Shown here piece after piece: positions 4,164 through 62,388 of a DNA stretch of 64,000 nucleotides. Every line of letters begins with the position of its first letter. Position 1 is the first letter of the stretch. Made by a program: the position numbers and the translations under genes. This stretch comes from an uncultured Gemmatimonadales bacterium (GTDB taxonomy: Bacteria > Gemmatimonadota > Gemmatimonadetes > Gemmatimonadales > Gemmatimonadaceae): positions 864,001-928,000 of the forward strand of contig CAWKNZ010000002.1 of assembly GCA_963851265.1 (NCBI GenBank). Direction: 5' to 3'. Below the pieces are notes generated by a model. That model was not told the DNA's origin. It saw only the letters and a program-made list of their open reading frames with translations, and ran no database searches.

Positions 4164-4458
4164 CGTCGGGACGCGCCAGTGACGCGGCGAGCGTCGTCAC
4201 TCCCGGACTAACGGCCCCGGCGGCCTTGTCGGCCCCCGGGCCAGAAATCCGGCTACTTCGGCCGCGCGCGCGGTTAGGCGCGCCGCCGTAGTCCGTCGCG
4301 GCGGGCTGGTCTCGGGACGCGTGAACGTCACGCGCGCGGCGTCGGTCGGGGGCGGCATCCCATGTCGGGCATTGACGGTCCGGTCGGCGACGCGTACCGT
4401 GGGCGCGCTCGTGCCCGATCCTGCGCCGCTTTGCTTGTCATCGCCCGGAACGCCCGTG

Positions 4459-5070
4459 ATGCCTATCGGTGCTGCGCTTCGTCGCTCCTCTTCGTTGCCC
4501 GCTGTCGCGCGGCACCCGACCCGTGGCGCTCCGGGGGCGCGCCTCGTCAGGATGGGAGCGCTCGCAGTCGGCCTCGCCTGTGCACGCGCGTCGGCGGCTC
4601 AGGCAACGACACACGCGCCGCGCGCGCCCGCGGACACCGTTGCCCTTCTCGCGGAAGCGCGCGCGTTCATGGATGCGTACGGCCGCGACCTGCGCGCCGG
4701 AAACCGGGCCGCGCTCGGCGCCCGCTACGACACCTCGGGCGCCTATGTCGTGGGCATGGGGCACCGCGCCTTGCGCCGGTACGCCGACATCGCGGCGGGG
4801 TACGCGACCGTGCCCCCGCAGCGCATCACCTTCCGCGACCTAGCGTACGAGGCGCTCGGGCCGAGCGCGGTACTCGTGACGGGGCTGTTCGACGTCGCCG
4901 CCGACGACGGGGTGCGCGCGCCGCTCACGTTCGCGTACATCGGCGTGCTGCGGGGCGGCCCGGGTGGGCTCCGCATCCGGCTGGAGCACGAGTCGCCGGA
5001 CCCACGGGCCCTCGGGTGGCGGCCGCCGGACGCGTCCAAGCCCGCGCCGCACGACAGTACGCGGCCCTAG
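4459..5070 (+). CDS. Secreted NTF2-like / DUF4440-like protein (start uncertain)
   Basis: Signal-like ASAAQA; ARAFMDAY..GNRAALGARY...FRDLAYEALGPSAVLVTG...LRIRLEHES is an NTF2-fold pattern. Confidence 0.65.
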   Translation: MPIGAALRRSSSLPAVARHPTRGAPGARLVRMGALAVGLACARASAAQATTHAPRAPADTVALLAEARAFMDAYGRDLRAGNRAALGARYDTSGAYVVGMGHRALRRYADIAAGYATVPPQRITFRDLAYEALGPSAVLVTGLFDVAADDGVRAPLTFAYIGVLRGGPGGLRIRLEHESPDPRALGWRPPDASKPAPHDSTRP

Positions 5071-5375
5071 CGGTCCGGTCGCGAGACGTCGTCGGCCGTG
5101 TCGCCTACCCGTGTTGCCTCGCGCATGATCGCCCGAACGAGCGAGGTCGCCCCGGGTCGGTCAGTCGGCGCGCCTTGCGGTCCGTGGTCACGGCGCCGTT
5201 CGCGGAGCCGCCGGCGTCGCGACTCGATTCGCTCTGGCGCGGTATCCTGCTGCTGCCATCGGTGCGCAGCATCCCGCCGGACGGAAAACGGGGCCAGGCC
5301 TCCGGACACGGCTGGCGAGCGCACGGGCGAAGTCGTAGTATCGGGGCGCTGTGCCGACCGAGTCACGCGGAACTG

Positions 5376-7922
<2,547 letters not shown>

Positions 7923-13657: not shown

Positions 13658-16571
13658 ATGACGAGCCTCCCCGCCGAACCTGTCAGCTCCGTGACCACCA
13701 CGCGACCCGCGCTCGCCGGCCGCGTCGATGCGTGCCCCGATGCCCGCATCGTGGTCGATGCCGATGCCGTGTTGCGCTTCGCGAGCCCCGCAATGCTCCG
13801 AACGTTCGGCTACGAGCCCGAGGCGCTCGTCGGTACACGGGCGGACACGCTGGTCCACGCCGATGACTGGCCGGCGGCACTCGCGGCGATCACGCACGCC
13901 CGGCTGCAGCCGGGGACCACCCAGACCGCCGAGGTCCGCGTGCGCGACGCCGCGGGCGTACTGGCGACTCTGCGAGGCCGTCGGCCGTACGGGCGGCCCG
14001 GGCGTGTCGCTCTCCGGAGTCGTCGTCACGCTCCGCGACGTGACCGCGTGGCGCGAAGCGGAGTCGGCGCTCCGGACGAGCGAGGCACGCTTTCGCGCGC
14101 TCATCGAGCATGCCCAGGACGTGGTGGGAATCGTGGGCCTCGACGGCGTGGTGCAGTATGAGAGCCCCGCCGTCGAGCGGGTACTCGGCGTCACACCGGA
14201 GGCGCTCGTCGGTCGTGAGGTGACGGACCTCGTGCACCCCGACGACCTGCCGGCCGTGACGGCCGCGCTCGCGGCGCTGGCGCGAGCTCCGGGGAGCACG
14301 GTACCGGTCGCCTATCGGACCCGGCACGCGGACGGTTCGTGGCGCATGCTCGAGGGCGCGGCGTGGAACCTGGCGAACGACCCCGCCGTCGGCGGGGTGG
14401 TGGTCAACGTCCGCGACGTCACGGACCGTGCGGTTTCCGAGGCCGCGCTCCGTCGCAGCGAGGAGCGCTTCCGCGCGCTCAGTGCGTCGTCGCCGGTCGG
14501 CATCTTCGAGGCTGACCACGACGGCCACCTGACCTACGTGAACCCCCGGATGGAACAGATCTGGGGCGTGTCGGACGTCGAGCTGTTAGGCGACGGCTGG
14601 ACGGTGCGCGTGCACCCGGACGAGCGACCGACGGTGGTCGAGGGCTGGCGGGCCGCGCTGGCCGCGCATTCGGAGTACGAAGTCGGCTTCCGGGTCCTGC
14701 ACGCGAGCGGGGAGACCCGGTTCGTTCGGGGTCACGCCGCGCCACTCCGGGACGCCACCGGCGCCGTGGTCGGCGCGGTCGGTACGATGAAGGACCTGAC
14801 GCCTCGGTGCCGCGCCACGGAGGCGCTCGCGGAAAGTGAGGCGCGCCTCCGGCTCGCGCTGAGCGCCGGTCGCATGGCCGTCTGGGAGTTCGATCTCCAA
14901 ACCGAGGCGATGCGGCCGGATGTCGCGTGCGAAGACCCGAACCCGGCAACCGGCGAGGTTCCCGACGACTTGGGGATTCCCGCGACGTTCGCCGCGTTCC
15001 TGAACGGCATCCATCCGGACGACCGCGCGCGGATCGAGAGCGCTGGCGCGCACGCCCTGGCGACCGGGGCGGACATCGAGGAAGAGTTCCGGGTCGTGCT
15101 CCCCGACGGCGCCGTGCGGTGGCGTCACATTCGGGGGCGCGCGGTGGCGGGACCGGGCGGCGGGCCCGCGCGCCTGGTCGGCGTCGGCACCGACACGACG
15201 GACCGGAAGTCCCTCGAAGAGTCATTGGTACATCAGGCGCGCCACGACGCGCTGACCGGATTGGCCAACCGCACGCTCTTCCGGGAGCGCGTCCTGCGCG
15301 CGCTTGCGGACACGTCGGCGACCGGCGCACCGGTGCACGGCCGCGGAGGCGACCGGTTCCCGGCGGTGCTGCTCGTCGATCTCGACAACTTCAAAACGGT
15401 CAACGATTCGCTCGGGCACGCGGCCGGCGATCACCTGCTCACCGTGGCCACGGCGCGGCTGCTCGACGCCACCCGCGGCTCCGATACCGTGGCCCGGCTG
15501 GGCGGGGATGAGTTCGCGATCCTGCTCGACGGCGTGCGCGACCATTCCGAGGCGGCGGTGGTATCGGACCGCGTCGTCGCCGCGCTCACGGCCCCATTCG
15601 CGCTCGACGGCCGCGACGTCCGCGTCGGAGCCAGCGTGGGCATCGCGTTCGCGCGCGCGGGCGACGACCCCGAAGCGCTCCTCCGGAACGCCGACCTCGC
15701 GCTGTACCGCGCGAAGGCGGCGGGGAAGGGCCGCTCCGCAACGTTCGTCCCGGCGATGCACGCCGCAGCCGTCGAGCGCCTCGAACTCGAGGCCGAGCTG
15801 CGGTGCGCCGTCGCTAACGGCGACCTGACCGTACACTACCAACCCGTCGTATCGCTCGAGACGGGCGCGGTGACCGGTGCCGAGGCGCTGGTCCGGTGGC
15901 CGCATCCGGAGCGCGGGCTCGTCCCGCCGTCGACCTTCATCCCGATCGCCGAGTCGGCGGGGCTGATCGTGCCACTCGGCGGGTGGGTGCTCGAAGAGGC
16001 GTGCCGCGCGGCCGCGGGGTGGGCGACGGCGGGCATCGCCGGCGCGGATGCGTTGACCGTCGCGGTGAACGTCTCGGCGCTCCAGTTCCAACACCCGACC
16101 TTCGTTCGGGACGTGGAAGCCGCCGTCGTGGCCTCGGGGCTCCCACCATGCCGCCTGGTGCTGGAGGTGACCGAGAGCGTCGTGCTTTCCGACCTCGACG
16201 CGGCGATCTGCCGGCTGGAGGAGCTGCGCGCGCTCGGCGTCGGCCTCGCGCTCGACGATTTTGGGACCGGGTACTCCTCGCTCGCGTACCTCCAGCGGCT
16301 GCCGCTGGATGTGCTCAAGATCGACCGCGCGTTCATCGCCGAGCTGTGCGCGGACGGCAAGAGTGCAGCGCTCGCGCGCGCTGTCGTCACGTTCGCCGAC
16401 GCGCTGGAGCTGCGCACCGTGGCGGAGGGGGTCGAAACAGCGGCCCAGCACCTCGAGCTCGCGCGACTCGGCTGCGGCTTCGGGCAGGGCTACCTCTACT
16501 CCCGGCCGCTCGAGCCGGCGGCACTGGTCGAGTACATCCGGGCACACCATCCCCGCGTCCTCACCAAGTGA
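13658..16571 (+). pseudogene. Multi-PAS GGDEF-EAL protein interrupted by a frameshift near 13958; the downstream part may still be expressed
   Basis: The first PAS begins in the frame of ORF 13391-14161 (ATG 13658) and continues as YWRLCEAVGR in the frame of ORF 13728-16571; RLGGDEF, EALVRW and DDFGTGYSS are intact. Confidence 0.75.
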
Positions 16572-18980: not shown

Positions 18981-20199
18981 GACGGGGGATTGAGAGGCGG
19001 GAGCGCCCACCCGTCACCGTGCAGGCGCCGGTCGATACGGGGCACCGCCACCGTGCGCACCCCGTCCGACCTCACCTCAGGACGAGCGTGGTCGTCCCGA
19101 GGTCAACGCGCCGGGCACGTCAGTCACGCACTCGGCCGGTCGCGCGCGGTTACGCGACGTCGCGGTCAGCGGGCGCCACGCGGTACGGCGCGCTGCCGTC
19201 CGACGCCGGGCGGCGCCACGGCGCCGGTATCGACGGCTCCGGGGCCTCCGCGATTCGGACGTCGGCGGCCGTGGGCTGCGGCGCGACGTCGCGCAACGCG
19301 GGAGCTACCAGAGCGGAACGGCGGAAGTGCTGTCGTTCGGTCCGTCGGTCCTGCAGACGGCCGGTGAGTGGTCGGCGCACGCTATAATCGAGATGCGAAT
19401 AAACTCGGCGCCACCCTGTGTGGCACCGGACCGAACGCGGCGGCGGGCGCCGCGTGCGAGACATACTCATGTTCACGGCGCGTGCCACCGGAGTGCGCGG
19501 CCGAAGGCTCCGCCCACCGAGCGACGGTCGCGACACGGTGTCGCGCGCGCGCTACGTACGCGATCGCATGCGAGCGCCGCGGAGTCGCGCGAACGCGGGT
19601 GATATCGTTGCATGATGTAGCAAAAGAGCCACGCCCGCGGTCGAGGTACGCGACCGCACGACGCGCGATGAGCCGCGCCCCGATCGCGCCCGGGACGGAC
19701 CCGCCCGCCGCGGATCCCGGCGGTAGGCTGGGCGCGCCGCACGCCGACCGTCCGAGCGCGGCACGCATGCATGAAGTCGCACCGCGCCCCGCGCCCCGCG
19801 CACGCCGTGCGTGGCGAGCGCGGATCCGACGCCGTCGTGCGTGAACTGCCCGTCCGAGATCGGAATGTTAGGCCCAATGATGACCGGCTCGACCGCAGGC
19901 GGTTCCAACAGCTCCGCCCGCGGCCGCTCGCACGCGTCGGACGGGAGCGTGCACGGCAGCCGGTTCGATTCGGCGTGGTGCGCCGAGCGCACGACGTGGT
20001 GCGTGCCGGCGTACCGCGCGTACGGTAGCGTACGCACCGCGGCGTTCGGCTCGACGTCGCACGATCGGTACGCAGTCTGCGATGCCGCCGCCCGTCCACG
20101 GACCTGCACGGCGGGTCCTGGCGCCGCGGCCGTGCGGTCGCCGCGCCAGGACGCGCGATCGTGTATTACCCAGCCTGCATCACCAGAGGAGAGCGGAGT

Positions 20200-21669: not shown

Positions 21670-23517
21670 TCAGGACCCGCCCGGTCGCGGCGGCGGTGCC
21701 GCGACCGTCCCCTCGAGCGCGTCGACGGTCGCGGCGAGGTAGGCGAACGGGGCGTTCCAGTTGATCGCGATCTCGTTGGCGGCGTAGGCGCACGTGCTGT
21801 CGACGTACGAGAGCGCGGGGACGCGCGACGGGTAGCCGGGGCAGTGGTCCTGCTGCCCCGGGTTGGGGCCGCCGACGAGCAGCCCGGGGATCGGTTCGGC
21901 GATGCCGTCCGCCGCGGAGGGGCGGTGGTGCGGGAACCGCGGCGGGCGCACGCCGACGCCGGTCACGAACGAGTAGCCGGTCGCGTTCCGCCCGAGGATG
22001 TAGTCGAGATTCGCGACCGCCGCGTCGAGCAGCGCGCGGTCGCGCGTGAGGCGGTAGGCCTGGATCAGCAGCATGCCCTGGTTGGCCGCGACCGCGTTAC
22101 TCCCCCAGATGAAGTCCCGCGGGTCGTCGATCGCGACGCCGTACGCCGACGCGCCGGCGCGCGCGGCCAACGCGCGCGCCGGCGTGAGGACGCGCGCGGC
22201 CAGCGCCGCCGTGTCGAACGCCGCCGGCAGCTCGGCGCGGTGGTCCAACAGCGAGTAGACGCCTAACATCGCGACCGAGCCCCAGCTCGGCACGCCGGGC
22301 GTCGGCGCGGCGAGCGGCGCGGCGGCGACGAGGAAGCTGTCGGCGTGTGTCGCGACGTACAGCTCCGACGCCGCCCAGCGGACCTCGTCGCGCACGTCGC
22401 CGTCGCCATACGTCCCCGTGGTCACCCGCGGCGCGAACTGCGCGTTCATCCGGTCCTGGTCGTAGATCGCGTCCGGGTGGCGACGCGCCCACGTCCACGC
22501 CGCGAGCGCCTCGCGCACGAGCGAGTCGGCGAGGCCGGACGGGGCCGCGTGGTACCGCCGCAGCACGACGGCCGCGTGCGCCGCGGTCGCCGAAAAGTCG
22601 AGCGCCGCGGCGGTGCTCTTCTGCACGACGTAGCGCGGCGTGGTCGCCGCGGCGGGCATCACGAACGGGTCGAATACCGCGTTCGTCAGCTTGTGGTACA
22701 CGCCGCCGTCGGCCGGGTCCTGCATCGTGCGCATCCAGCCCAGGTTCCAGAGCGCCTCGTTCAGCACGTCGGGCAGACCGTTCCCGCTTTCCGGGATGTG
22801 CGTGTCGAGCGCGGCCGCGTACGCCGGGACGTGGTCGGCGAGCGCGAAGAGCGTGTAGGTGCTGATTCCGGAGTTGACGACGTACTTGTTGTAGTCGCCC
22901 GCGTCATACCAGCCGCGCGGCGACGAGACGTGCGCGCCGACGGCCCGCGTCGGCCCCGCGGCCGACGGGTGTACGAGCACGGCCGTGTCGGGGTGGCCAG
23001 CGGCGCGCGCCCAACGCCCCGCATAGCGCGCCGGCAGGTCGGTCGAGGCGCGCTGGTAGTAGAACGCCTTCACCGCGGCACGCGCGACCTCGCGCGCCGC
23101 GCCCGGCTGCACCACGAACGGCGCCGACGACCCCACGCCCGCGACCGTCAGCACGTAGCGCCCCGGCCGCACGAGCGCGCCGAACTCGGCGCGGCGCACG
23201 ACCTCTCCCGACGGGACCCACGCGCGCGGCGGCGTGAGCGTGCCCGCGAACGCGGTATCGCCCCGTGCCGCGTCGACGACCGCGAATCCCCGTGCCGCGT
23301 CACCGGCGACGACCACCGCGGTCTTCGGTTCGCGGACGTCGAATCCGACCTGATTGAGACGGATGCGAGGCGACGGCACGGCGCCGGGCGACGAGCCGCC
23401 GGCCGGAGCCGTGCCGGCAGGCTGCTGAGCATGCGCCCGACCGCCGAGCGCCGCGAGCGTGAGAACGATGCGAAGCGCGCGTGTCGCGCCCGGCGCAGGA
23501 ACGGCGTGGACACTCAT
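21670..23517 (-). CDS. Glycoside hydrolase family 9 (endoglucanase) with N-terminal Ig-like domain
   Basis: IRLNQVGF; GWYDAGDYNKY; LDYILGRN; PHHRPS; YAANEIAINWNA; signal peptide. Confidence 0.93.
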   Translation of the reverse strand: MSVHAVPAPGATRALRIVLTLAALGGRAHAQQPAGTAPAGGSSPGAVPSPRIRLNQVGFDVREPKTAVVVAGDAARGFAVVDAARGDTAFAGTLTPPRAWVPSGEVVRRAEFGALVRPGRYVLTVAGVGSSAPFVVQPGAAREVARAAVKAFYYQRASTDLPARYAGRWARAAGHPDTAVLVHPSAAGPTRAVGAHVSSPRGWYDAGDYNKYVVNSGISTYTLFALADHVPAYAAALDTHIPESGNGLPDVLNEALWNLGWMRTMQDPADGGVYHKLTNAVFDPFVMPAAATTPRYVVQKSTAAALDFSATAAHAAVVLRRYHAAPSGLADSLVREALAAWTWARRHPDAIYDQDRMNAQFAPRVTTGTYGDGDVRDEVRWAASELYVATHADSFLVAAAPLAAPTPGVPSWGSVAMLGVYSLLDHRAELPAAFDTAALAARVLTPARALAARAGASAYGVAIDDPRDFIWGSNAVAANQGMLLIQAYRLTRDRALLDAAVANLDYILGRNATGYSFVTGVGVRPPRFPHHRPSAADGIAEPIPGLLVGGPNPGQQDHCPGYPSRVPALSYVDSTCAYAANEIAINWNAPFAYLAATVDALEGTVAAPPPRPGGS

Positions 23518-23528
23518 GGTGGCCTAAC

Positions 23529-25938: not shown

Positions 25939-27999
25939 ATGCCCTCCACCCGTTCCGTTCGTCACGCCGCGTCGGCACTTGCCGCGGTCGCGCTGTCGGT
26001 CGCCGGCGCCGCCCTGGGCGCTCGCGCCGCCCGCGCCCAAGCGCCCGGTCACGCGCTCGGCGTCGACACGACCAACTTCGACCGCTCGGTCCGCCCGCAG
26101 GACGATTTCTTCCGGTTCGTCAACGGCGGCTGGCTCAAGCGCACCGAGATCCCGGCCGACCGTTCCAGCTGGGGCGCGTTCCTCGAGTTGCGGGAGCGGA
26201 GTGCCGTCGCGCTGCACGGCATCCTCGACAACGCGGCCCGCACGCCGGCCGCGCCCGGCACCAACGAGCGCAAGATCGGCGACTTCTACGCGAGTTACAT
26301 GGACTCGGCCCGCGTCGAATCGCTCGGCCTGACGCCGCTCCAGCCGGAGTTCCGCGCGATCGCGGCGGTCACCACGGCGGCGCAGCTGCCCGCCGCGTTC
26401 GCCCACTTCGCCCGACTCGGCGTGGCCGGTCCGGCCGGCGTCTTCGTCGGCCAGGACGCGCGTAAATCGGACGCCTACATCGTCTCGATCTCGCAGTCCG
26501 GCCTCGGCCTTCCCGACCGCGACTACTACCTGCGCGCCGACCCCAAGCTCGTCGCGGCGCGTACCGCGTACGGCGCGTACATCACGCGCCTCCTCACGCT
26601 CGCCAAGCAGCCCGACGCGGAGGGTGCGGCGGCGCGCATCGTCGCGCTCGAGACTGCGATCGCCGGCCGCCAGTGGGACCGCGCGCGCAACCGCGACCGC
26701 AACGCCACGTACAACCGGATGACGGTCGCGCAGCTCGCCGAACTCGTGCCGTCGTACGGCTGGCGTCAGTACTTCGCGGCCGCCGGGCTCGACGCGGCCA
26801 CCGAGGTCGTGGTCCGGCAGCCCGACTACCTCCGCGCGCTCGACCCGATCCTCTCGAGCACCCCCGCGTCGACGTGGCGCGAGTACCTCACCTTCAAGCT
26901 GCTCGACAGCTACGCCGACGAGCTGCCGGCCGCGTTCCAGCAGGCCCGCTTCGAGTTCCGCGGGCGCACGCTCAGCGGCCAGCAGGCGATGGGGCCGCGC
27001 TGGAAGCGCGCGGTGCAGGAGGTCGAGGGCGCGATGGGCGACGCCGTCGGGCAACTCTACGTGCGCCAGTACTTCGCGGCGACCGCGAAGGCGCGCATGG
27101 ACTCGCTCGTGCACAACCTGCGCGAGGCCTACCGGGTCGGCATCGACAGCCTGCCGTGGATGAGCCCCGCGACCAAGGCGGAGGCGCAGCAGAAGCTCGC
27201 GCACTTCACGGTCAAGATCGCCTACCCCGACCGGTGGCGCGAGTACGCCGCGCTCGAGGTCCGGCGCGACGACCTGTTAGGCAACGCGATGCGCGCGAAC
27301 GCGTTCGAGTACGCCGACAACACCGGCCACCTCGGCAAGCCGGTCGAGCGCTGGCGCTGGGGCATGACGCCGCAGACGGTCAACGCGTACTACAACTCGA
27401 CCAACAACGAGATCGTCTTCCCGGCCGCGATCCTCCAGCCGCCCTTCTTCAACGTCGACGCCGACGACGCGGTCAACTACGGCGCCATCGGCGCGGTGAT
27501 CGGCCACGAGATCGGTCACGGCTTCGACGACCAGGGGCGGAAGAGCGACGGCGCGGGCAACCTGCGCGACTGGTGGACCCCCGCCGACGCGCAGGCCTAC
27601 GAGGCCCGCACGGCGAAGCTCGCGGCCCAGTACGAGGCGATCACGCCGATCGACAGCATCCACATCAACGGCCGCCTCACGCTCGGCGAGAACATCGGCG
27701 ACGTCAGCGGCCTCGCGGCGGCGTACCGCGCCTACCACGTGTCGCTGCACGGCCGGCCGGCTCCCGTCATCGGCGGCTACACGGGCGACCAGCGCTTCTT
27801 CCTCGGCTTCGCGCAGATCTGGCGCACCAAGTTCCGCGACGACGCGCTCCGCCAGCAGCTGCTCACCGACCCGCACTCGCCTGGGCAGGTGCGCGCGCTG
27901 GTCCCGCTCGTCAACAACGACGCCTTCGAGACGGCGTTCAACGTGAAGCCCGGCGACAAGATGTACCGCGCGCCCGAGGACCGCGTGAAGATCTGGTAA
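25939..27999 (+). CDS. M13 family metallopeptidase (neprilysin/PepO-like)
   Basis: PQDDFFRFVNGGW; VNAYY; HEIGHGFD; GENIGD; signal peptide. Confidence 0.95.
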   Translation: MPSTRSVRHAASALAAVALSVAGAALGARAARAQAPGHALGVDTTNFDRSVRPQDDFFRFVNGGWLKRTEIPADRSSWGAFLELRERSAVALHGILDNAARTPAAPGTNERKIGDFYASYMDSARVESLGLTPLQPEFRAIAAVTTAAQLPAAFAHFARLGVAGPAGVFVGQDARKSDAYIVSISQSGLGLPDRDYYLRADPKLVAARTAYGAYITRLLTLAKQPDAEGAAARIVALETAIAGRQWDRARNRDRNATYNRMTVAQLAELVPSYGWRQYFAAAGLDAATEVVVRQPDYLRALDPILSSTPASTWREYLTFKLLDSYADELPAAFQQARFEFRGRTLSGQQAMGPRWKRAVQEVEGAMGDAVGQLYVRQYFAATAKARMDSLVHNLREAYRVGIDSLPWMSPATKAEAQQKLAHFTVKIAYPDRWREYAALEVRRDDLLGNAMRANAFEYADNTGHLGKPVERWRWGMTPQTVNAYYNSTNNEIVFPAAILQPPFFNVDADDAVNYGAIGAVIGHEIGHGFDDQGRKSDGAGNLRDWWTPADAQAYEARTAKLAAQYEAITPIDSIHINGRLTLGENIGDVSGLAAAYRAYHVSLHGRPAPVIGGYTGDQRFFLGFAQIWRTKFRDDALRQQLLTDPHSPGQVRALVPLVNNDAFETAFNVKPGDKMYRAPEDRVKIW

Positions 28000-31325: not shown

Positions 31326-31356
31326 CCGGGCGCTCGTCAGGCCGGGGGCGCCGCGC

Positions 31357-33066
31357 TCAATCCCACCATCCGTGCAGGAACCACGGAGCGTCGTCCGCCG
31401 GCGCCCCGAGGTCGCGGTAGAGCAGCACCAGCTCGCCGCCCCCGGTGAGACACTGCCAGTACTCGCGCGAGAGGGGCGCCCCGGTCTCCGCCCCCGCCGT
31501 CACCCGGTCGGGCCCGACTGCCGTGACCACCTCGACGAGCGGAATTCCGCGCGGTGCTCGCACCCCCTCGGCCAGCCGCTCGCGGTAGCGCACCGGGACC
31601 AGGTGCCCGCGCTCGGCGCGCGTCGTCACCGCGAGCGGACGCGGGCGCGGGAGCACGCGCAGGTTCATCGGCTCCTGCACGCCGGTGGACGCGTCGCCGG
31701 GCGCCTCGCCGGGCGCCTCGCCGGGCGCGTCGGGTGTCGCCGCGCGGACGAGGCCTAACGTCACGCCGCCGCGCCCGCCTGGCGCCGCCCGCCGCGCGTC
31801 GGCCCCGCCCGGATGTAGCGTGAGCCGCGGCGTCTCGGGGGACACGGCGGGGGAGACGGCACGCGGCCGCCCCTCGCACACGACCGGCGCGGCGCGCCCC
31901 GCCCGCAGCGCGGCCTCGACCGTCGTCGGCTCCCAGGCGAGGCGCCGCTCGGGCAGCGCGTGTGCGCCCGCTACCGGCCGCACGGGGCGCCCGGCGCCAT
32001 CCTCGATCAGCCGCGCGACGGCCGCCGCCGCCGCGCCCGCCGTCTGTCCGCCGCGGTCGAAGAGGTCCGCCTGCGGCGCTGCGGCCGCCCGCGCGGCTTC
32101 CACCCGCAGCGCGAGCCCGCACACGCCGTCCGGGAGCTCGACGCGTTCCAGCTCCGCTCGCAGCAGCCGGCGCCACGCGGCGGGGTCGGCGGTGTCGCGC
32201 GCGGCCCGCACGCGCCGCTCCACCGCACCGCCGCCGGCGAGCTGCACCACGAGCGTCATCGCGCCCGCTCCCTCGCCGCGCGCGTCCAACGCCTCGCACA
32301 CGCGCGCAACGAGCCGGCCCGCGACGAACAGCAGTCGCTCGGGCTCGCGCAGGTCGAACTCGGTCCACTCGAGCGACGCCGACGGCAGCGCGTGCCCGGC
32401 GTGCCGGAACACGCGCCGCGCGTCGTCCGCCCGCGCGAGCTTCCAGAGGGCGACGCCTGCTGCCCCGAGCCGCACCTCCACCGCCTCCCGCGCGATGCGG
32501 GCGAGCGCGCCGCACGTGACCACGCCCACGTCGGCGAGCGCCGCCACCGCCCGCGCCACCGCGGCCGGCGATACGGCGGCCGGCGATACGGCGGTCCCCG
32601 TGTCGCCGGCCGCGTCGGCCGTCACCGAGGGCAGCAGCGTGCTCAGCGCGTGCGGGGCGAGGAACGCGCGCTCGGCGTTCGGCGCCACCCCGGTCAGCGG
32701 CGCTTCCTGCCCGCCTCCCCCGCCTCCGTGCGCCCCCCAACGCGCCCCCCAACGCGCCGCCACCTCTGCGGCCACCGCGACGCGCGCGACCCCCACGCGC
32801 GGCCGCGCGACGTGCTCTGCGCGCGCATGGCGCAACACTTCACGCGCCACCCAACGCGCCGGCAGCCCGCGCCCGTCCGCCCAGACGTACGTCCCGCCCT
32901 CGGCCGGCACCACCACCGCGTGCGGCGTCACGCCGAGGAGTCGCGCGAGCAGCGGGGGCAACGCGCCTGCGTTAGGCGTCGTCGGCGCAGCCCCCGGCGG
33001 AGTCGCCTCCGCCGCCGGCTCCGCGGCGGTCGGCCGGTCGGGGGTCCAGAGCGTCACGAACGTCAT
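31357..33066 (-). CDS. imuB: ImuB-like inactive Y-family polymerase
   Basis: Lies between imuA-like and dnaE2; ALADVGVVTCGALAR HhH region; QADLF clamp-binding-like motif; C-terminal REYWQC...LLYRD...WFLHGWWD. Confidence 0.82.
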   Translation of the reverse strand: MTFVTLWTPDRPTAAEPAAEATPPGAAPTTPNAGALPPLLARLLGVTPHAVVVPAEGGTYVWADGRGLPARWVAREVLRHARAEHVARPRVGVARVAVAAEVAARWGARWGAHGGGGGGQEAPLTGVAPNAERAFLAPHALSTLLPSVTADAAGDTGTAVSPAAVSPAAVARAVAALADVGVVTCGALARIAREAVEVRLGAAGVALWKLARADDARRVFRHAGHALPSASLEWTEFDLREPERLLFVAGRLVARVCEALDARGEGAGAMTLVVQLAGGGAVERRVRAARDTADPAAWRRLLRAELERVELPDGVCGLALRVEAARAAAAPQADLFDRGGQTAGAAAAAVARLIEDGAGRPVRPVAGAHALPERRLAWEPTTVEAALRAGRAAPVVCEGRPRAVSPAVSPETPRLTLHPGGADARRAAPGGRGGVTLGLVRAATPDAPGEAPGEAPGDASTGVQEPMNLRVLPRPRPLAVTTRAERGHLVPVRYRERLAEGVRAPRGIPLVEVVTAVGPDRVTAGAETGAPLSREYWQCLTGGGELVLLYRDLGAPADDAPWFLHGWWD

Positions 33067-33757: not shown

Positions 33758-33859
33758 GGTGCGAGGTCCGGTGGCGGGGCGCGGGTGACGGGGGCATCCG
33801 GGTGGGCAGGGGTTAGGCAGCCGCGTCGGAACCCGCTCGGCGCGAGCGGCGGGCGGCCA

Positions 33860-35933: not shown

Positions 35934-36181
35934 GGATAGGCGCGAGGGGCTCGCCGGGCGGGGCGCCACGTGCGCCCCGCCCGGCGGGCTCGATTTGCCA
36001 GTACAGTAGTCGCGCGTACACCCGGCGCGGAATGTCGGGAATGTGCAACAGTGCGATCGTAGCACGCGCGCCACGGGCGTCCGGCCCGGTGGCGGGTGGG
36101 CGCCGTGCTTCCGTTAGGCGCGGCACGGCGCGCCGACCGGCTACGTTTCGACGCCCGTCGACCCCTCCCACTTTCGCGCCC

Positions 36182-39186: not shown

Positions 39187-39200
39187 CGTCCGGCCGTACG

Positions 39201-40790
39201 TTAGGCCGCGCGGGACGCGCCCGGCCGGGCGCCCGGCGATTCGTTAGGCGTCACCGCGGCCGCGCGTTCTGCAGTTGACGCACGCTCGCCCTCGGCCGAC
39301 GGCTGGCCGCGGCGGTGGGCGAGGGCGGCGCGGGCCTCGGCGACGGCGTCGGCGAGGCGGGCGGCGGCGTCGGCGCACTGGGCGGGGGTGTGGTCGGCCT
39401 GGGCCTGGAGGCGGAAGCGCGCGGCGCGCACGCCGACGGCGGGGAACTCGACCAGGTTGGCGAAGAGCCCGCGGCGCAGCACGCCGCCGCTGGCCAGGCG
39501 CGCCAGCGGGGTGTGGCCGATGAGCACGGGCACCACGGCGGCGGGCTCGCCGAGGCACGCGAGCCCGCGCGCGCCGAGCGCCGCGCGCAGCGCCGCGACG
39601 TTGGCCAGCAGGCGCTCGCGGCGCGCGGCGCCCTCGGGCCCGCGCACGATGGCGAGCGCCGCGCGCACCACGGCCACCTGCAGCGGCGAGAGCGCGTTGG
39701 AGAACGTGTAGGGGCCGCCGTAGGCCTCCAGGTAGGCGCGCACCCCGGCGGAGCGCGTGGCCACGAAGCCGCCGTTCGAGGCGAAGGTCTTCGAGAACGC
39801 GCCCATCACCAGGTCCACCTCGCCCAGGAGCCCCGAGCGCCCCACGTGCCCCGTGCCCCCGGGGCCGAGCGCGCCGAAGTCGTGCGCCACGTCGACCAGG
39901 AGCGTCGCCTGGTACTCGCGGCACACCGCGCGCATGGCGCCGAGGTCGGGCGAGTCGGCGTCCATCGAGAACAGGCCCTCGGTGAGCACCAGGATCCCGT
40001 GGCGCGCGTCGGCCGCGCGGATCTGGGCGAGCGCGCGCGCCAGGGCCGGCACGCTCAGGTGCTCCACGCGCGTCACGTTCGCGGTGGCCGCCTGCGCCCC
40101 GGTCTGCAGCGAGGCGTGCGCCAGGCGGTCCATGACCACGTGGTCGTCGGGGCGCACCAGCGCGGTCACCGCCGCGAACGCCGCGCCCCAGCCGCTGGAG
40201 AAGAGCACCACGTGCTCCACGCCCAGCGCCTCGCCCAGCTCGCGCTCCAGCGCGCGCGAGGCCGCCGAGCGCCCCTGCAGCGCGCCCGAGCCCCCGGAGT
40301 GCACGCCGAAGCGCTCGAGCGCGTCGGCCGCGGCCGCCCGCACCGCCGGGTGCGCCGCGAGCGAGAGGTAGTCCTGCGTGGCGAAGTTGAGCCCCTCCAC
40401 GTAGCCCGCCCCCGCCGCCGCGTCCCCGGCCGCCCCGGGCGCGAACCGCGCCCCCTCGGCCCGCGCCACCGGGCCCACGCCCCCCTCCACCGCCCGCGCG
40501 TACGGCCACACCTCGGCCGCGCGCCGCGCCGCGATCCACGGCGCGATCCCCGCCGTGCGCGCCACCAGGTCCGGCCCGCTCGGCCGCGCGAACTCCGCGA
40601 AGCTCCCCCGCAGCGGGTCCACCCCCGCCCACGCCCCCGCGTCGAGCGCCCCCGCCGCGACCCCGGCCGCCGACGCGCCCGCGGCGGCCGCGGGCGGCGT
40701 AGACGGATCAGAGGGAGGAACGAGCGACGGATGAAGCGGCACGAGGAACGCGGTTCGGGACAGCGGAGCGACGAAGCCAGACAGGATCAC
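39201..40790 (-). CDS. PLP-dependent alpha-oxoamine synthase family enzyme (BioF/KBL/SPT/CqsA-like); start uncertain
   Basis: NFATQDYLSLA; FSSGW; DRLAHASL; EGLFSMDAD; DVAHDFG; GAFSKTFASNGG (PLP lysine). Confidence 0.88.
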   Translation of the reverse strand: MILSGFVAPLSRTAFLVPLHPSLVPPSDPSTPPAAAAGASAAGVAAGALDAGAWAGVDPLRGSFAEFARPSGPDLVARTAGIAPWIAARRAAEVWPYARAVEGGVGPVARAEGARFAPGAAGDAAAGAGYVEGLNFATQDYLSLAAHPAVRAAAADALERFGVHSGGSGALQGRSAASRALERELGEALGVEHVVLFSSGWGAAFAAVTALVRPDDHVVMDRLAHASLQTGAQAATANVTRVEHLSVPALARALAQIRAADARHGILVLTEGLFSMDADSPDLGAMRAVCREYQATLLVDVAHDFGALGPGGTGHVGRSGLLGEVDLVMGAFSKTFASNGGFVATRSAGVRAYLEAYGGPYTFSNALSPLQVAVVRAALAIVRGPEGAARRERLLANVAALRAALGARGLACLGEPAAVVPVLIGHTPLARLASGGVLRRGLFANLVEFPAVGVRAARFRLQAQADHTPAQCADAAARLADAVAEARAALAHRRGQPSAEGERASTAERAAAVTPNESPGARPGASRAA

Positions 40791-41236: not shown

Positions 41237-41393
41237 GCACTGCGCGAATCGCGGCGCGTGCACACAGCGTGAGTTACAGGGCCGCCGAGGGTCCTTCAAC
41301 CCTGGGATGTGCTGCACCTCACATCACGCATGCGATCCCGAACGCGGCGCGTGTTAGGCACCACGACGCCGGCCGCACCGGCTTCCAAACCGC

Positions 41394-43089: not shown

Positions 43090-46000
43090 TCACGCCGCCC
43101 GGATGCGGCGCGCGAGCGGCGTGTAGTCGAGCGCGCGCGCGTGCACCAGCGACCGGTGCAGCATCGCCTCCGCCACCGGTCCGACGCCGCGCAGCAGCGG
43201 CGCGCATTCGGCTGCCAACCAGAGCGCGGCGTACGGGTCGTACCGTTCCGCGCGCTCGATGCGCGCGAGCAGCAGCTCCGCCACGTCCGCGCGCGAACGG
43301 CCGGTCGCCGCCGCAACCCGGACGTGGAGCGCGTCGCACAGCTCGCGCCCCTCAAACCACCACTCCGCCCGCTCCGCAAACCGCAGGTCCACCACGGCCT
43401 CCCGCTGCACCGCCCCACGCACCGCGCCGAGGTCGAGCTCGGCCAGACCGCCGCCCGCGAGCGCGCCAAGGTGTACCCCGGATTGGCCGAGCGCCTCGGC
43501 GGGTCCGAGGCATGCAGCGTACAGCTCCAACGCCCCGGCCGCGTCGCCCTGCGCGCGCGCGAGGTGTGCGAGGTTGTACAGCGTCACGAGCCGCTGCGGT
43601 TCCATCGCGAGGGCCGTGAACAGCTGCCGCGCCTCCTGCAGCGACTCCTCGGCCTGGGTGAACCGGCCGGTCTTGAGCATGAGGATGCCGAGGTTCCCGA
43701 GCGCGGTGGCGATCGTATTGCGCGTCCCGAGCTCACGGCCAATGGCTAGGGCCGTGCCGTACGCGACTTCGGCCGCGGCGTGGTTCCCCGACCGGTCGCA
43801 TGCGATGCCGATGTACCCGTGCGCCCGCTCCTGCCCGCGCCGGTCGCCGAGTCTCGTGTACAGGTCGAGTGCGCGCCGGTAGTGCGGGACCGCGTCGGCC
43901 GGACTCGTCTCGTGGCGCCCGGCCGAGACGACGTCGAGGACGGTGACGCCGACACGCATCGCTGCTGCGGCGTGCAGCTCGAGGTTGGGGAGGGGGGCCG
44001 CCGCGGCTACCGCCTCCGCGGCATAGCGTTCCGCGTCGCCTGAGTCGCCGAGCGCGGCGTGCGCTTCGGAGCACATGATGAGCAGCCACACGACTTCCTC
44101 GGTCGCGCCCGCGGCGCGCGCGTCGGCGAGCAGTGCGACGCAGCTCGCCAGCACGTCGCTCGCCGGTGCGCCGCGCTTGAGAAGTAGCCGCTGTTGCATC
44201 CGGCGCGCGGCCCAGAGCACGCCGAGCGTTTCGGAACCGTCGACGAGTTCGGTGAGCAGCGCCGTACATTCGGTGTCCGCCGCGGCGTGGTCGCCACGCA
44301 CCTCGGCGATCCCGGCGAGGCGCCATGCGACCGCGGCCATGTCGGAGCGCGCGCGGGCGTGCCGACGCGCGACCGCGAACAGCTCGGCCGCACTGTCGTA
44401 CGCGTGCGCGGCCGACGCCCGCGCTCCCGCCTCGAACGCCGTTCGGAACGCGTCGGCCGCGCAGCCGGCGCGGTCGAAGTGCCGGGCCACGTCCGCCGTG
44501 GTCACGTCGCCGCGCGACTCGAGCGCGCGGCCGACCCGCTCGTGCACGCGCCGGAGGCGCAACGGATTGACGCCCGCCTGCAGCACCCGCGGCAACAGCG
44601 CGTGCGCGAACGTGAGGGACGTGGCCGCCCGCGGCGACCGCTTGACCACGGCGGTGGCGAGGCCGGCGTCGAGCGCGTCGAGCACCTCGTCCTCGTCACG
44701 GTCGCAGGCGGCCGCGAGCGTTTCGGCGTCGAAGTCGCGGCCCAGGACGGCCGCGACGGCGAGGATGTCGCGCTGTCCGCGGCCGAGTCGCGCAATCCGC
44801 CGGGCGAGCAGGTCGTGGACCGCGCGTGGCAGAGGCGCCTCGTGTGGGCTACGCGCGGCCGCGGCGTCGAACACCCACCGCCCGTTCACCGCGCGCAGCT
44901 GACCGGCGTCGGTGAGGGCGCGGAGGGTGTGGGCGACGAACAACGGGTTGCCCTCGCTCTGCGCGGCCACGTACGCCAGAAGGGCGGGGTCCGCAGGCTG
45001 TCCGCCGAGCGCGGTGCGCAGCCATTGCGCGAGGACGTCGGAGCGGAGGCGGCCTAACGAGATCTCGGTGTACCGCTCCGACCGCGACAGGCGCGCACGC
45101 CGCGCATCCGCCGCCTCGTCGAGGTCGTCCGCGCCGATCGCCAGGCAGACGAGCAGCCGCTGCTCGCTGGTGCGCACGGCGAGAAACTCGAGCGCCTCCC
45201 ACGTCGCGGCGTCGGCCCACTGGGCGTCGTCGATGATCACGGCGAGGGGACGCGTGGCGGTGACGAGCGACAGAAAGTGGTGCAACTCGTCGAGCAGCAC
45301 GTACGGGGACCCGCCCGACGCGGGCAGCGGATCCACGACCGCGCGCGGTCCATCGGACGGATCGGCGAGTTCGGGGACGAGCCGCGAGAGCTCGCGCCAC
45401 GCGCGGCGCGGCGCGAGGCCCGCGCGCCAGGCCGCGAGCACGATGTCGGCCCACGGGCCCAGCGGCGGGCGCACGTCGGCTTCGAGACAGCGCGCCACGA
45501 GCAGCGACCCGGCGCGCACGCCGACGTCGGGGGCGAGCTGCTTGAGCAACGCCGACTTGCCTGCGCCCGCCTCGCCGACGACGGCGACGAGTTGCGGTTC
45601 GCCGCGCGCGGCGGCATCGAACAGGCGGCGCAGGCGCTGCCGCTCGTCCACACGTCCGACGAAGCACTCGAGAACGGCGTCGGCGTGCGCGGCGGTGCCG
45701 GACCCCGCGCGGGTGACCGCGTCGCGCCCGGCGCGCTTGGCGCCGTACAGCGCACCGTCCGCAGCGGCGAAGAGAGCCTCGAGCGTGTCGCCGTGTTCGG
45801 GAGCGGTCGCGACTCCGATCGACAACGTGACGCGAACGGTTTCCCCCGTGCCGTCCCGCCGCGGGCACGCCGACGCCGCGACCGCGGCTCGCAGTCGCTC
45901 CGCCACGACGCACGCCTCATCCAGCTGCGTGCCGGGGAGCAGGACGACGAATTCGTCGCCCGCGTATCGCGCCGGCAGGTCGCTGGGCCGGGTATTCGCG

Positions 46001-52625: not shown

Positions 52626-53716
52626 GCGGCGGCGTGCGCCGCGGCCGACGGCGCGCGGCCCGGCTCGGTCGCCCCGTCTCCGGCGCCTTCGACGCGCTGC
52701 GGAACTGGTCCGCGCTCCGCGTGGATCGGCGACGCGCCTTCGGCCAGTTCGGCGCGACTGCGCGTGGTGGGCGGCGGGACGTCCACGCGCACGGTGTTCT
52801 CGCCCGCGACCGCGCGCGCGGCGATGTCGACGAGCGCGGCGACGAAATCTGGACGCACGTTAGGCAGCGCCGTACGCCGGTAGGTGATGCCGAGTTCCTC
52901 GGCCTTGTGCTTCGCCTCGATGTCGAGATCGTAGAGGATCTCGAGGTGGTCGCAGACGAAACCGATGGGCACCTGGAGGACGTGCTCGACGCCTTCGGAC
53001 CGCAACTGGGGCAGGAAGTCGAGGATGTCGGGACCGATCCAGGGCTCGCCGGTCATGCCGGCGCTCTGCCACGCGCGGCGGTAGCCGGGAAGCCCCGCGC
53101 GCTCGGACACGAGCCGTGCGCTCTCTTCGAGTTGCGCCTCGTACGGGTCGCCCCAGGTGCGGATGCGCTCGGGCAGCGAGTGTGCCGAGAACACGACCGT
53201 GACGTCGCCGCGCTCGGTGGCGGGCCACTTCGCGAGCTCGTCGCCGACCACGGTCGCGATCGTGCCGATGAAGCCGGGGTCGTCGTGCCACTGCTCGACG
53301 AAGTCGACCGTGAATTCGACGCCGTGCTTGTGCATGCCTTCGAACAGGTAGCGCTGGTACCCGCCGACCGAGAAGCGAGAGTAGTGCGGCGCGAGCACGA
53401 GGCAGACGACGCGCTCGACGCCGTCGGCCGCCATCTGCGCGACCGCCTCGGCGATCCACGGCGTCCAGTGCTTCATACCGACGTACACGGGCACGTCGAG
53501 GCCGCGCGCCGCGAGGCCGGCGGCGACCGCGTCCCGCACCTCGTTCGTGAGGCGCGTGAGCGGCGTGCGACCGCCCACCGCCTCGTACCGGTGCCGGAGG
53601 TCGTCCATCCGCTCCTGCGAGGGCGGGCGTCCGCCGCGGATGTGCGTGTAGTACGGCTCGATGTGCTCCGGCGTCTCGGGCGTGCCGTATGCGAGGAGCA
53701 GCAGTGCGGTCTTCAT
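52622..53716 (-). CDS. hemH: Ferrochelatase, Firmicute-type (CpfC-like)
   Basis: LLAYGTP..IEPYYTHIRGGRPP..DLRHRYEAVGG; VFSAHSLP; WQSAG; GFVCDHLEILYDLD. Confidence 0.93.
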   Translation of the reverse strand: MKTALLLLAYGTPETPEHIEPYYTHIRGGRPPSQERMDDLRHRYEAVGGRTPLTRLTNEVRDAVAAGLAARGLDVPVYVGMKHWTPWIAEAVAQMAADGVERVVCLVLAPHYSRFSVGGYQRYLFEGMHKHGVEFTVDFVEQWHDDPGFIGTIATVVGDELAKWPATERGDVTVVFSAHSLPERIRTWGDPYEAQLEESARLVSERAGLPGYRRAWQSAGMTGEPWIGPDILDFLPQLRSEGVEHVLQVPIGFVCDHLEILYDLDIEAKHKAEELGITYRRTALPNVRPDFVAALVDIAARAVAGENTVRVDVPPPTTRSRAELAEGASPIHAERGPVPQRVEGAGDGATEPGRAPSAAAHAAA

Positions 53717-58226: not shown

Positions 58227-58703
58227 ATGGGCATTGTTTCCCTATTCGCCGCGGCGTCGGTCTTCGTGGCGGTTGCCGCCGCTCCTCCGACGTCGGCGAA
58301 CGTGGCTGGCGTGTGGGCGACGGTCGTCGACTGCGACGCGGTGCGCGTCGAGCTCGACACGGGTGGCGTCGCGCACGGGCCCGAGGCTCGGCAGCGGGCG
58401 ACGGCCGAAGGCCCGCTTCGGGCGCGTCTGCGCTGGACGCTCCGCGACGCCGACGTGAGCCCGTCGGCGTGGGCACTCGGGGTCCGGACGACGCTCGACG
58501 ATCTCGACGTCGACTGCGCCTCCGGTTCGTCACGAACGGTGGCGTCGCGCGCGTTCACCGCGGGCGGCGAATTCGTCGAAGGGGCGAGCGCGGCCGTCGA
58601 GGCGCCCGCCTGGCGACGACACGCCGCGGGCAGCGTCGGCGCGCTCGTGACCGCGGCCGTGTGTCGCGCGGCGGGACGGGCGGTCGGCGCGGCCGCTGCC
58701 TAA
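58227..58703 (+). CDS. Secreted protein, surface-adhesin E-like
   Basis: Signal peptide; DVDCA...W...GSVG...AVC two-cysteine pattern. Confidence 0.55.
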   Translation: MGIVSLFAAASVFVAVAAAPPTSANVAGVWATVVDCDAVRVELDTGGVAHGPEARQRATAEGPLRARLRWTLRDADVSPSAWALGVRTTLDDLDVDCASGSSRTVASRAFTAGGEFVEGASAAVEAPAWRRHAAGSVGALVTAAVCRAAGRAVGAAAA

Positions 58704-58874
58704 CGGTGCCGAGCGGGGCGGGCGTCGCCGCGCGCAGTCGCCCGGGCGGTCCGGCGCCGGTGTGCGCCGCGCGACCGACCCCCTGCCTGCCCGCGGCACG
58801 GGTCGGCTATCATCTGTGATGGTCATCTCGGGACGCTCCGCGCGAGCGCCCGCCGCGCATCCGCCCCGCCCGCC

Positions 58875-60829: not shown

Positions 60830-61762
60830 ATGGCGGCGAACGCAGCCACTCGGCGCCCGGCGTCGGCCGGAGCGCCGCCGACGGGTGCGGCGACCGGACT
60901 CGGCGCGGACGGGTGGGCGGCGGGCGACGGCGTTCGTCTGCACTACGTCTCGCGCGGCGACGGCCCGCTCGTGCTGTTGCTGCACGGGTTCCCCGATTTC
61001 TGGTACGGGTGGCGACACCAACTGGCGCCGCTGGCCCGGTCGGGTTTCCGGGCGGTGGCCGTGGACCTCCGCGGGTACAACCTGAGTCAGCGCCCGGCGC
61101 GGGTCGCGGCGTACGTCCTCGACCGCCTCGCCGGCGACGTCGTCGGGCTCGCTGTCGCGTTAGGCGGCGGCCGCGCGCACGTGGTCGGGCACGACTGGGG
61201 CGGGGCGATCGCGTGGCGCGTCGCGACGCGGCACCCCGACGTCGTGGACCGGCTGGCGATTCTCAACGCGCCGCACCCGCGCCGGTTCGCGGAGCTGTTG
61301 CAGACGCCCGCCCAGGCGCTGCGGTCGTGGTATGCCGGCGCGGTGCAGGTGCCCGCCGTGCCGGAGCTGCTGCTGGCGGCACGCGGGCGCGCGCTGCTGC
61401 ACGCGACCTGGACGGCGATGCACCGCCGCCCCGGCGCGTTCACGGCCGAGGACCACGCGCGCTACGACGCCGCGTTCGCCTCGCCGGGCGCGCTGCGCGC
61501 CGCGCTGGCGTACTATCGCGCCGCGGCCCGACACGCGCGCGACACGCTCGGCCGCGACGTTTCAGCGCGCGACGACGTCGTGCGCGCGCCGACGTTGGTG
61601 GTCTGGGGCGACGAGGACCCGGCGCTCGTGCGCGCGAACGCCGAGGGGCTCGAGCGGTGGGTGCCCGATCTGCGGGTCGAGCGGGTGCCGGGCGCGGGAC
61701 ACTTCGTGCAGGCCGACGCGCCCGAGTCGGTTAACGACGCGCTCCGCCGATTCCTGAGCTGA
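60830..61762 (+). CDS. Alpha/beta hydrolase, epoxide-hydrolase-like
   Basis: LLHGFPDFWYGW; DLRGYNLS; GHDWGG; WGDEDPAL; GHFVQ. Confidence 0.92.
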   Translation: MAANAATRRPASAGAPPTGAATGLGADGWAAGDGVRLHYVSRGDGPLVLLLHGFPDFWYGWRHQLAPLARSGFRAVAVDLRGYNLSQRPARVAAYVLDRLAGDVVGLAVALGGGRAHVVGHDWGGAIAWRVATRHPDVVDRLAILNAPHPRRFAELLQTPAQALRSWYAGAVQVPAVPELLLAARGRALLHATWTAMHRRPGAFTAEDHARYDAAFASPGALRAALAYYRAAARHARDTLGRDVSARDDVVRAPTLVVWGDEDPALVRANAEGLERWVPDLRVERVPGAGHFVQADAPESVNDALRRFLS

Positions 61763-61803
61763 CTGCGCGTCGGGCGGACGGCGCGACTGGGATCGCGTAG
61801 TCG

Positions 61804-62388
61804 TTAGGCGCGTGGCGTCGCGCGTCCTACCGCGCGCGCCGGCGCCGCCATCCGCGTCACGCCGCCCGACACGAGGAAGGCCATCACGTCCGCGCTCTCG
61901 GCGGCGACCGGGCGCACGCGCTCCGCGGGGAAGAGCACGACGTGCCCGGCCACGCTGTACGACATCGGCAGGTAGACGGCGACGCGGCCGGGGAGGCCGA
62001 GGTGGTCGAGCGCGGTCTGGGTCACGAAGCCGAGCGCCTCACCGCCCGCGTCGGGGTAGAGTGCGACGATCACGGGGCGGTCGAATCGGCGCTGCTCGCC
62101 GACGAAGGCGTTGAGCAGGTCCTTGGTCGAGCCGTAGAGCAGGCGGACGAGCGGCAGGCGCGTGAGCACACGCTCGATCAGGCCGAGTACCGCGCGTGCG
62201 ATGAACGTCGAGGCGAGGAAGCCGACGACGACGACGACCGCGATCGTGATGACGAAACCCGCGCCCGGGACGCTGAGCCCGAGCCACGAGTCGACCGCGG
62301 AAAAGAGCCGCCAGCAGACGTAGAGGGTGACCGCGAGCGGCGCGATCACGGCCACGCCGCGAAGAAAGTAGTTGAGCAGGGCGCGCAT
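61804..62388 (-). CDS. DUF502 domain membrane protein
   Basis: YFLRGV..APLAVT; RLPLVRLLYGSTKDL; LGFVT; AVYLP; FLVSGG. Confidence 0.88.
   Translation of the reverse strand: MRALLNYFLRGVAVIAPLAVTLYVCWRLFSAVDSWLGLSVPGAGFVITIAVVVVVGFLASTFIARAVLGLIERVLTRLPLVRLLYGSTKDLLNAFVGEQRRFDRPVIVALYPDAGGEALGFVTQTALDHLGLPGRVAVYLPMSYSVAGHVVLFPAERVRPVAAESADVMAFLVSGGVTRMAAPARAVGRATPRA

Follow-up and report, generated by a model that had tools for sequence, protein, structure and literature searches.

DNA words that are iterated for a function have been found in few lineages, each with its own sequence and its own reader. Among these, HIP1 (highly iterated palindrome 1) of cyanobacteria is a dense, frame-independent, palindromic word that is conserved at silent sites. 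Comparable elements are the DNA uptake sequences (DUS) of Neisseriaceae and uptake signal sequences (USS) of Pasteurellaceae, Chi, the FtsK-orienting polar sequences (KOPS) and the attC sites of integrons (for further background see the available parts of PMC7811141 and PMC7326373). In the cos phage LLS, Chi has 20:3 copies by strand, one per 1.86 kb, and in phage MD8 32:0 copies, the favoured strand being the top one, as given in the available part of PMC12315714. The present analysis concerns the heptamer GTTAGGC, iterated in a 64-kb stretch from an uncultured Gemmatimonadales bacterium (the window: C2:864001-928000 of a 4.60-Mb, 12-contig genome, G000). The word is real and under selection. 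The literature searched apparently contains no description of it: queries on the word, a Gemmatirosa methylation motif, a Gemmatimonad uptake sequence and a Chthoniobacterales motif, not covering subscription papers and supplements, returned none, and the word itself only in primers among the 30 of 2,205 matches listed, in agreement with a preliminary description of the window, which knew of none.

A DNA word kept against codon usage

Throughout the genome GTTAGGC occurs 1,762 times, with 885 and 877 copies on the two strands. It is the top heptamer under a first-order Markov model (11-fold) and ranks third under a third-order model (13.9-fold), behind its own overlap TTAGGCA/TGCCTAA. According to our own gene calls (3,705 genes, not from a standard caller), 1,291 copies are coding, against 59 expected from a synonymous-codon null or 31 from a null without the motif's own codons, an enrichment of 22-42 times. 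The preliminary description had named such a codon-aware null, and the single-mismatch variants, as the tests on which its DNA-level word could fail; the word survived both, the variants numbering 36 (GTTAGCC) and 64 (GTTAGAC) vs its own 1,762. Relative to expectation, some single-base neighbours are depleted (GTTAAGC 0.14, GTTAGCC 0.22). Built from the rarest codons, the word occupies all four open frames, stops and spacers: it holds 994 of the 1,277 TTA codons, 124/431 TAA stops and 84/742 TAG stops, and 281 copies are intergenic. Its density climbs with GC content at third codon positions from 130 to 533/Mb, and is 276-329/Mb in core genes vs 121/Mb in 41 lineage-specific genes. Silent opportunities are filled alike in both orientations, at 14-22% for [A/S/T/P]-Leu-Gly and 14-25% for Pro-Asn-[V/G/D/A/E]. 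The claim that a DNA-level word is kept against codon usage is thus supported by the codon null, by silent-site filling and by conservation between relatives (see below).

The consensus reads YGTTAGGC, followed by a mild preference for a purine. The preceding base is C in 79% and T in 14% of copies, the following base G in 54% and A in 22%, and this holds in every context class; hence the earlier claim that flanks are not conserved fails for the adjacent bases and stands further out, where no information is found. In lower-GC hosts (G436, G305, G480) the consensus extends to TYGTTAGGC, a T standing two bases before the word at a frequency of 0.37-0.44 vs 0.17-0.20 in the background; this enrichment is absent from the present genome, from G283 (0.23) and from G219 and G276 (0.22). 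Flanks are otherwise unrelated, and a larger repeat or repetitive extragenic palindromic (REP) element was rejected.

Sites avoid one another. Pairs within 300 bp number 79 vs 204 expected, and the pair correlation is 0.21-0.47 at 50-300 bp and about 1 past 600 bp, with control words at about 1 and the same pattern in two relatives. In the present genus (g1), inverted and same-direction neighbours are both depleted, and in other genera inverted pairs only, so that all genome sets tested show a deficit of inverted pairs spaced by less than about 300 bp. Inverted pairs within 40 bp amount to 6 among 1,762 sites, and no 10.5-bp helical phasing of sites was detected. Once gene strand is allowed for, there is no replichore polarity: sense copies number 361 in 1.46 Mb of leading and 254 in 0.95 Mb of lagging strand, and the ratios are 61:49 for intergenic copies and 44:54 for stops. 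A KOPS-like word is polarised in the same genome, unlike GTTAGGC. Replichores were inferred from the skew of this KOPS-like word, using consensus patterns for KOPS, as for parS, the DnaA box and attC.

The largest gap between copies is a region of 45 kb around mnmG-parAB (C1:182877-227963). Orthologous parAB blocks are nearly empty in two same-genus genomes and not in other genera, a gene-linked deficit confined to g1. In this genus a variant parS-like palindrome, TGTGGCACGTGCCACA, is present in two perfect copies flanking mnmG-rsmG (C1:192709 and 195715), where other genera have a canonical parS site. A general exclusion from the origin was rejected, six other rich genomes having normal density there and G384 having sites 1.5-9.5 kb from parS.

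In the window, 19 exact copies compare with 2.26 +/- 1.44 in dinucleotide shuffles (maximum 7; 0/100 reach 19). All 19, 13 on the plus and 6 on the minus strand, lie where the preliminary description had placed them. Seven of 10 TTA codons in window genes fall within the word (about 11 had been counted), and the readings of three copies as CCT-AAC (32971, 39243, 52859) and of four open reading frames (ORFs) as ending in GCC-TAA-C (32972, 39201, 58703, 61804) were borne out. The copies are:

4273..4279, plus: word preceded by G, outside gene calls
14585..14591, plus: G-TTA-GGC (Leu-Gly) in a PAS/GGDEF/EAL gene
19867..19873, plus: outside gene calls
22261..22267, minus: TTA-GGC in a cellulase-like gene (21670-23517, minus)
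23522..23528, minus: between two minus-strand genes
27276..27282, plus: TTA-GGC in a PepO-like peptidase gene
30297..30303, minus: TTA-GGC in gene 28038-31313 (minus), downstream of the imuB-like gene
31753..31759, minus: TTA-GGC in the imuB-like gene
32971..32977, plus: CCT-AAC in the imuB-like gene, also GCC-TAA stop of the imuA-like ORF
33812..33818, plus: word preceded by G, outside gene calls
36113..36119, plus: outside gene calls
39200..39206, plus: GCC-TAA stop of a BioF-like gene (39201-40790, minus)
39243..39249, plus: CCT-AAC in the same BioF-like gene (39201-40790, minus)
41353..41359, plus: outside gene calls
45052..45058, minus: TTA-GGC in a large GGDEF/HD gene
52859..52865, plus: CCT-AAC in the ferrochelatase gene (minus)
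58698..58704, minus: GCC-TAA stop of the ORF ending at 58703 (plus)
61159..61165, plus: TTA-GGC in gene 60830-61762 (plus)
61803..61809, plus: GCC-TAA stop of gene 61804-62388 (minus)

The two copies of the BioF-like gene, at 39243 and at its stop, are 43 bp apart and form a rare close pair. The window also contains a cluster of eight tRNA genes (361-1414, plus strand) and an imuA-imuB-like cassette (28038-33757).

Conservation and occurrence in other genomes, phages and integrons

In 350-kb alignments with two same-genus genomes at 80-81% identity, 65/106 and 46/111 sites are retained; the retention of seven similar control words is 4-31%. Where a site is lost, preferred codons have mostly returned, and the sequence is often 2-3 bases off the word; copies arose as in-frame substitutions, not insertions. 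Lineage-specific sites of different genomes are neighbours slightly more often than expected (17 vs 9.7 +/- 2.7 within 100 bp), the excess beyond 100 bp being not significant. The nearest named relative, an uncultured Gemmatimonadales bacterium with an 88% identical HemE, is rich (887 YGTTAGGC in 1.7 Mb). Among 301 genomes of the phylum, richness is confined to some members of this family and to a single genus of another, and by hand count about 109 of 400 Gemmatimonadaceae genomes hold at least 100 YGTTAGGC per Mb; 13 genomes flagged as unpublished enter these tallies, the capsid/terminase-host tallies and that of Acidobacteriota, all of them below threshold and none of them the sole basis of a claim. 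Density can span more than 100-fold inside one genus: in genus g25, six genomes have about 1,000/Mb and eight have 20/Mb or fewer. In a quick one-gene tree of 30 rows with weak inner support, rich genomes fall in several groups. The enrichment recurs in many independent assemblies and in a named isolate, Gemmatirosa kalamazoonensis KBS708, with 786 YGTTAGGC on plasmid 2. An integrase-bearing element of about 15 kb (L140, G283:C4) carries the word at or above host density.

The same word occurs outside the phylum. A metagenome scan for two spaced copies gave 120 loci (79 listed with flanks), of which the 34 of at least 4 kb were examined: seven are attC arrays, several are unenriched or Gemmatimonadota-like, and 11, with 55-64% GC, have dispersed copies. 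In three of these 11 the labelled named homologues are all from Chthoniobacterales, Spartobacteria or Verrucomicrobiota (about 72-87% identity, one gene per contig: SufS, MurF and an MFS protein). The three Chthoniobacterales-like contigs, a finding new here, hold 36 copies in 40.5 kb vs 2.0 expected (889/Mb, seeded copies excluded), 30 of them with the T-Y prefix and with four frames used; the Verrucomicrobiota evidence consists of metagenome contigs, not whole genomes. The other eight dispersed contigs, which have no taxonomic assignment, hold 62 copies in 75 kb vs 4.4 expected. Acidobacteriota are poor (165/166 genomes below 50/Mb; one, G701, at about 100/Mb), as are Planctomycetota (156/156 below 50/Mb). 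Two Acidobacteriota with low totals, G681 and G711, have a strong YGTTAGGC strand skew (10:62 and 76:12) which may come from local arrays.

Viral scans (120, 16 and 37 loci) returned mostly attC arrays, tandem repeats or chance pairs; viral-classed contigs of IMG/VR with long attC cassette arrays are L284, L296, L297, L317, L319, L343 and L360. Dispersed copies are clear in G632 and G633 and weaker in L289, L324 and L500. Over 25 kb, the provirus G632 carries 13+14 copies. In the complete phage G633 (57.8 kb), GTTAGGC is the top heptamer, distributed 32:1 by strand (YGTTAGGC 31+1) vs 1.3 expected per strand. It keeps to the top strand in both gene blocks, including Pfam-verified minus-strand genes (ERF, PD-(D/E)XK nuclease), a ratio with a chance of 4e-7 even allowing for gene direction, and its sites, one per 1.8 kb, are spaced more evenly than random (P 0.01). 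This phage encodes a lambda-type gpA terminase, portal, ERF, exonuclease, a QueE-like radical SAM protein and FolE, the genes for terminase and portal lying close to its left end, on the word-bearing strand. Its one-strand pattern resembles that of Chi in lambdoid cos phages, given the LLS and MD8 figures in the available part of PMC12315714. The T-Y prefix is common to these two unrelated phages and the Chthoniobacterales-like contigs, and in G633 it agrees with the Chthoniobacterales type no less well than with the present genome. Most of 44 capsid relatives of G633 lack enrichment, and Atlas searches for a phage host gave no useful taxa.

The word is identical to the commonest core of integron attC sites (GTTRRRY/RYYYAAC), an identity that the preliminary description overlooked, as it did the preceding pyrimidine. 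The attC sites of the genome's own cassette array (end of C10, start of C6) read GCCTAAC(G)...CGTTAGGC, with the same 8-mer C-GTTAGGC, and cassette arrays of unrelated organisms likewise have GCCTAAC..GTTAGGC as their dominant core. Among the copies, only those of the C10/C6 array form paired R''/R' boxes on a hairpin of 50-140 nt. The array (C10:188000-215025 and C6:1-6044) has many small toxin-antitoxin-like ORFs, and intI on C6 is split by an insert of about 2.1 kb with a serine-recombinase-like ORF. On a KBS708 plasmid about half of the attC cores are GTTAGAC; elsewhere on the strain's plasmids, away from the integron, GTTAGAC counts 0 and GTTAGGC 80 per 100 kb. The identity of word and attC core may be a coincidence, or a clue to the origin of the reader.

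Search for the reader and possible explanations

No reader was found among the candidate families compared in rich vs poor genomes. HsdM, N6_N4 and C5 methyltransferases do not separate the two groups and were rejected, C5 enzymes being absent in 3/3 and the N6_N4 family in 3/4 rich genomes; UvrD-family helicases were rejected on the same ground. An Eco57I-like methyltransferase (1,141 aa) adjoining a helicase-like gene (C7:579717-585511) is present in 76/77 genomes, near full length across the order and unusually stable for a restriction-type gene; it is in poor genomes too, and no residue tracks the word (14/200 label shuffles as good). ComEA, ComEC and pilins (the last by count) are present in rich genomes and equally in poor ones (69/70; 5/5). 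IntI does not track the word either, being found in rich and poor genomes alike (44/72; 5/5).

The phage and second-phylum data tilt the interpretation towards a reader that is intracellular and orientation-sensitive. The conservation of sites at about 80% identity, the T-Y prefix common to two unrelated phages and the Chthoniobacterales-like contigs, the deficit of close inverted pairs and the lack of a matching motif in the published methylome point the same way. We tentatively favour, at somewhat less than even chances, the reading of (T)YGTTAGGC as an unmethylated, non-palindromic, orientation-sensitive signal that is read inside the cell in the manner of Chi. A candidate DNA-tracking protein would read the word on DNA inside the cell, and DNA with the word facing a free end would be repaired, recombined or spared more often. 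Alleles creating the word at silent sites would then spread and be kept because word-bearing DNA is favoured. Chromosomes would need both orientations, for two-ended breaks, and cos-type phages mainly one. The reader gene would be patchy and probably moves sideways, hence the same word in two phyla.

Several observations weigh against this Chi-like signal. The chromosome has no replichore polarity, unlike known Chi, and g1 avoids same-direction and inverted neighbours alike, contrary to what a purely polar reader would predict. Conservation, at 52-63%, also extends to two of the nine control words (GAAGTAG and CTTCTTC, amino-acid-constrained). None of the known readers of Chi goes with the word: the PD-(D/E)XK domain PF12705 of AddA/AddB/RecB type is found in 9/34 rich vs 25/36 poor genomes, kin being non-independent, and within g25 in 0/6 rich vs 7/8 poor; the complete genome G283 has none, and the present genome has it. 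The available part of a preprint argues against Chi as a mark of self and for codon usage as its driver in E. coli (bioRxiv 2021.07.08.451572), so that the analogy is limited to hotspot logic. Family members of G633 are weaker or two-stranded (8+15, 5+3, 4+6 in 20 kb, 0, 1+1). G633 also co-orients other words, with 29 heptamers having at least 88% of their copies on one strand, and with a second dispersed, longer, YRTTTGGTGATAAGCTT-like repeat in 14 copies on the same strand to 1 (L461-L463). These other words reach about 2-4 times expectation on the favoured strand (one 8 times) and GTTAGGC 25 times; polarity alone is therefore unspecific, and only the 25-fold gain is specific. Finally, neither G633 nor G632 has a proven host: major capsid matches are of 23-31% in 8/301 genomes, and a terminase match is of 34% in 1/251.

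The main rival, possible though less probable, is a DNA uptake sequence of the DUS/USS type, in which a competence receptor prefers word-bearing fragments and the genome is filled by molecular drive; the exclusion at about 300 bp would then come from the shortness of DNA fragments in soil. The strand symmetry, the use of all frames with the cheapest codon positions and stops, the core-gene bias, the competence genes present and the weak local compensation within 100 bp agree with it, as does site conservation, non-shared sites being often 2-3 bases off as in neisserial DUS (PMC2397512, available part). Inverted-pair terminators are lacking, however, competence genes are as frequent in poor genomes, compensation past 100 bp is not significant, and one word in two phyla would be a poor kin tag. 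The 32:1 ratio of G633 is left unexplained; to our knowledge, competence uptake is not a normal route for phage DNA.

It is unlikely that the word is anchored in the integron, with a reader that would stem from the attC core, or have evolved to catch it (e.g. for cassette capture), and genome copies as a by-product. The same 8-mer in the genome's own array and the dominance of this core in unrelated arrays speak for such an anchor, which would explain an identical word in distant lineages. On the other hand, IntI is as common in poor genomes and is interrupted here, its genomic targets need only GWT (bioRxiv 2022.09.11.507474, available part), GTTAGAC is missing from KBS708 plasmids outside attC cores, nearly all Acidobacteriota and all Planctomycetota tallied are poor, and copies are in-frame substitutions.

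Rather more doubtful is a site for a nucleoid-organising protein, whose footprint or loop would make a second site within about 300 bp useless or harmful. The pair correlation, repeated in two relatives, is as this predicts; the lack of 10.5-bp phasing, the more than 100-fold density span in one genus, the confinement to g1 of the motif-free zone near parAB and the one-strand phage pattern are not.

A word driven by methylation or repair, as a mutational drive of HIP1 type, is very improbable. Depleted neighbours (GTTAAGC, GTTAGCC) and the widespread Eco57I-like gene beside a helicase-like gene would suit it, but, apart from the methyltransferase distribution given above, the published single-molecule real-time (SMRT) methylome of KBS708 lists only RGATCY, ATGCAC and CCAGN7TCA (PMC3974934), none matching in that published motif list despite the many copies on plasmid 2. 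A codon, dipeptide or assembly artefact, to which the 77% of coding copies (994/1,291) in one frame and a mild Ala-Leu-Gly enrichment (1.12) might point, is practically inconceivable given the rarest codons at 22-42 times the codon-aware null in four frames, stops and spacers, and the many independent assemblies and named isolate. Of the options raised in the preliminary description, methylation is thus disfavoured and KOPS-like translocation excluded, because there is no replichore polarity, while uptake, recombination and a nucleoid site remain.

Returning to the Chi-like signal, a broader and more speculative proposal, which we hold possible but doubtful, is that cells of two or more soil phyla have a mobile DNA-reading system which imposes one word, the integron cassette core, on all their replicons. 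The word would be a RecBCD/AddAB-independent signal of recombination or protection, copied by phages in a set orientation, and the system may have arisen to recognise cassettes.

Comparison with known systems

An identical word, on or off within one genus and shared by two abundant soil phyla and the viruses of these, provides a natural contrast through which a new DNA-reading protein could be found, and the mechanism can be tested in a cultured, word-rich type strain, KBS708. The word might further serve to link phages and contigs with their hosts. The features tested place it in none of the classes Chi, DUS/USS, HIP1, KOPS and attC.

Like HIP1, the word is dense, frame-independent and conserved at silent sites; unlike it, the word is not palindromic, and cognate methylation is not seen in the published KBS708 motifs. 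With KOPS/FtsK it shares the short, asymmetric, iterated form, but there is no polarity switch at ori/ter, whereas a KOPS-like word is polarised in the same genome. The letters are those of attC, including the preceding C of the genome's own sites; dispersed copies, however, have no partner box or hairpin and avoid close inverted pairs, and their sequence is strict, unlike the degenerate cores of attC. As with DUS and USS, there are hundreds to 1,500 copies per Mb on both strands and in all frames, core-biased and conserved, and competence machinery is present. The word is nevertheless shorter, without terminator pairs or a receptor found, once strongly polar in a phage, and not lineage-specific, as seen in Chthoniobacterales-like contigs and phages. 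From Chi it differs in being made of the rarest codons and not preferred ones, in not being polarised with replication on the chromosome, in being identical in two phyla and in that a RecB/AddAB-type nuclease was not found in 25/34 rich genomes. It is like Chi in being a non-palindromic 8-mer over-represented beyond codon usage. In one phage whose terminase is lambda-type, G633, it lies on one strand about once per 1.8 kb, as described for LLS and MD8 in the available part of PMC12315714, and in five relatives it is weaker or two-stranded.

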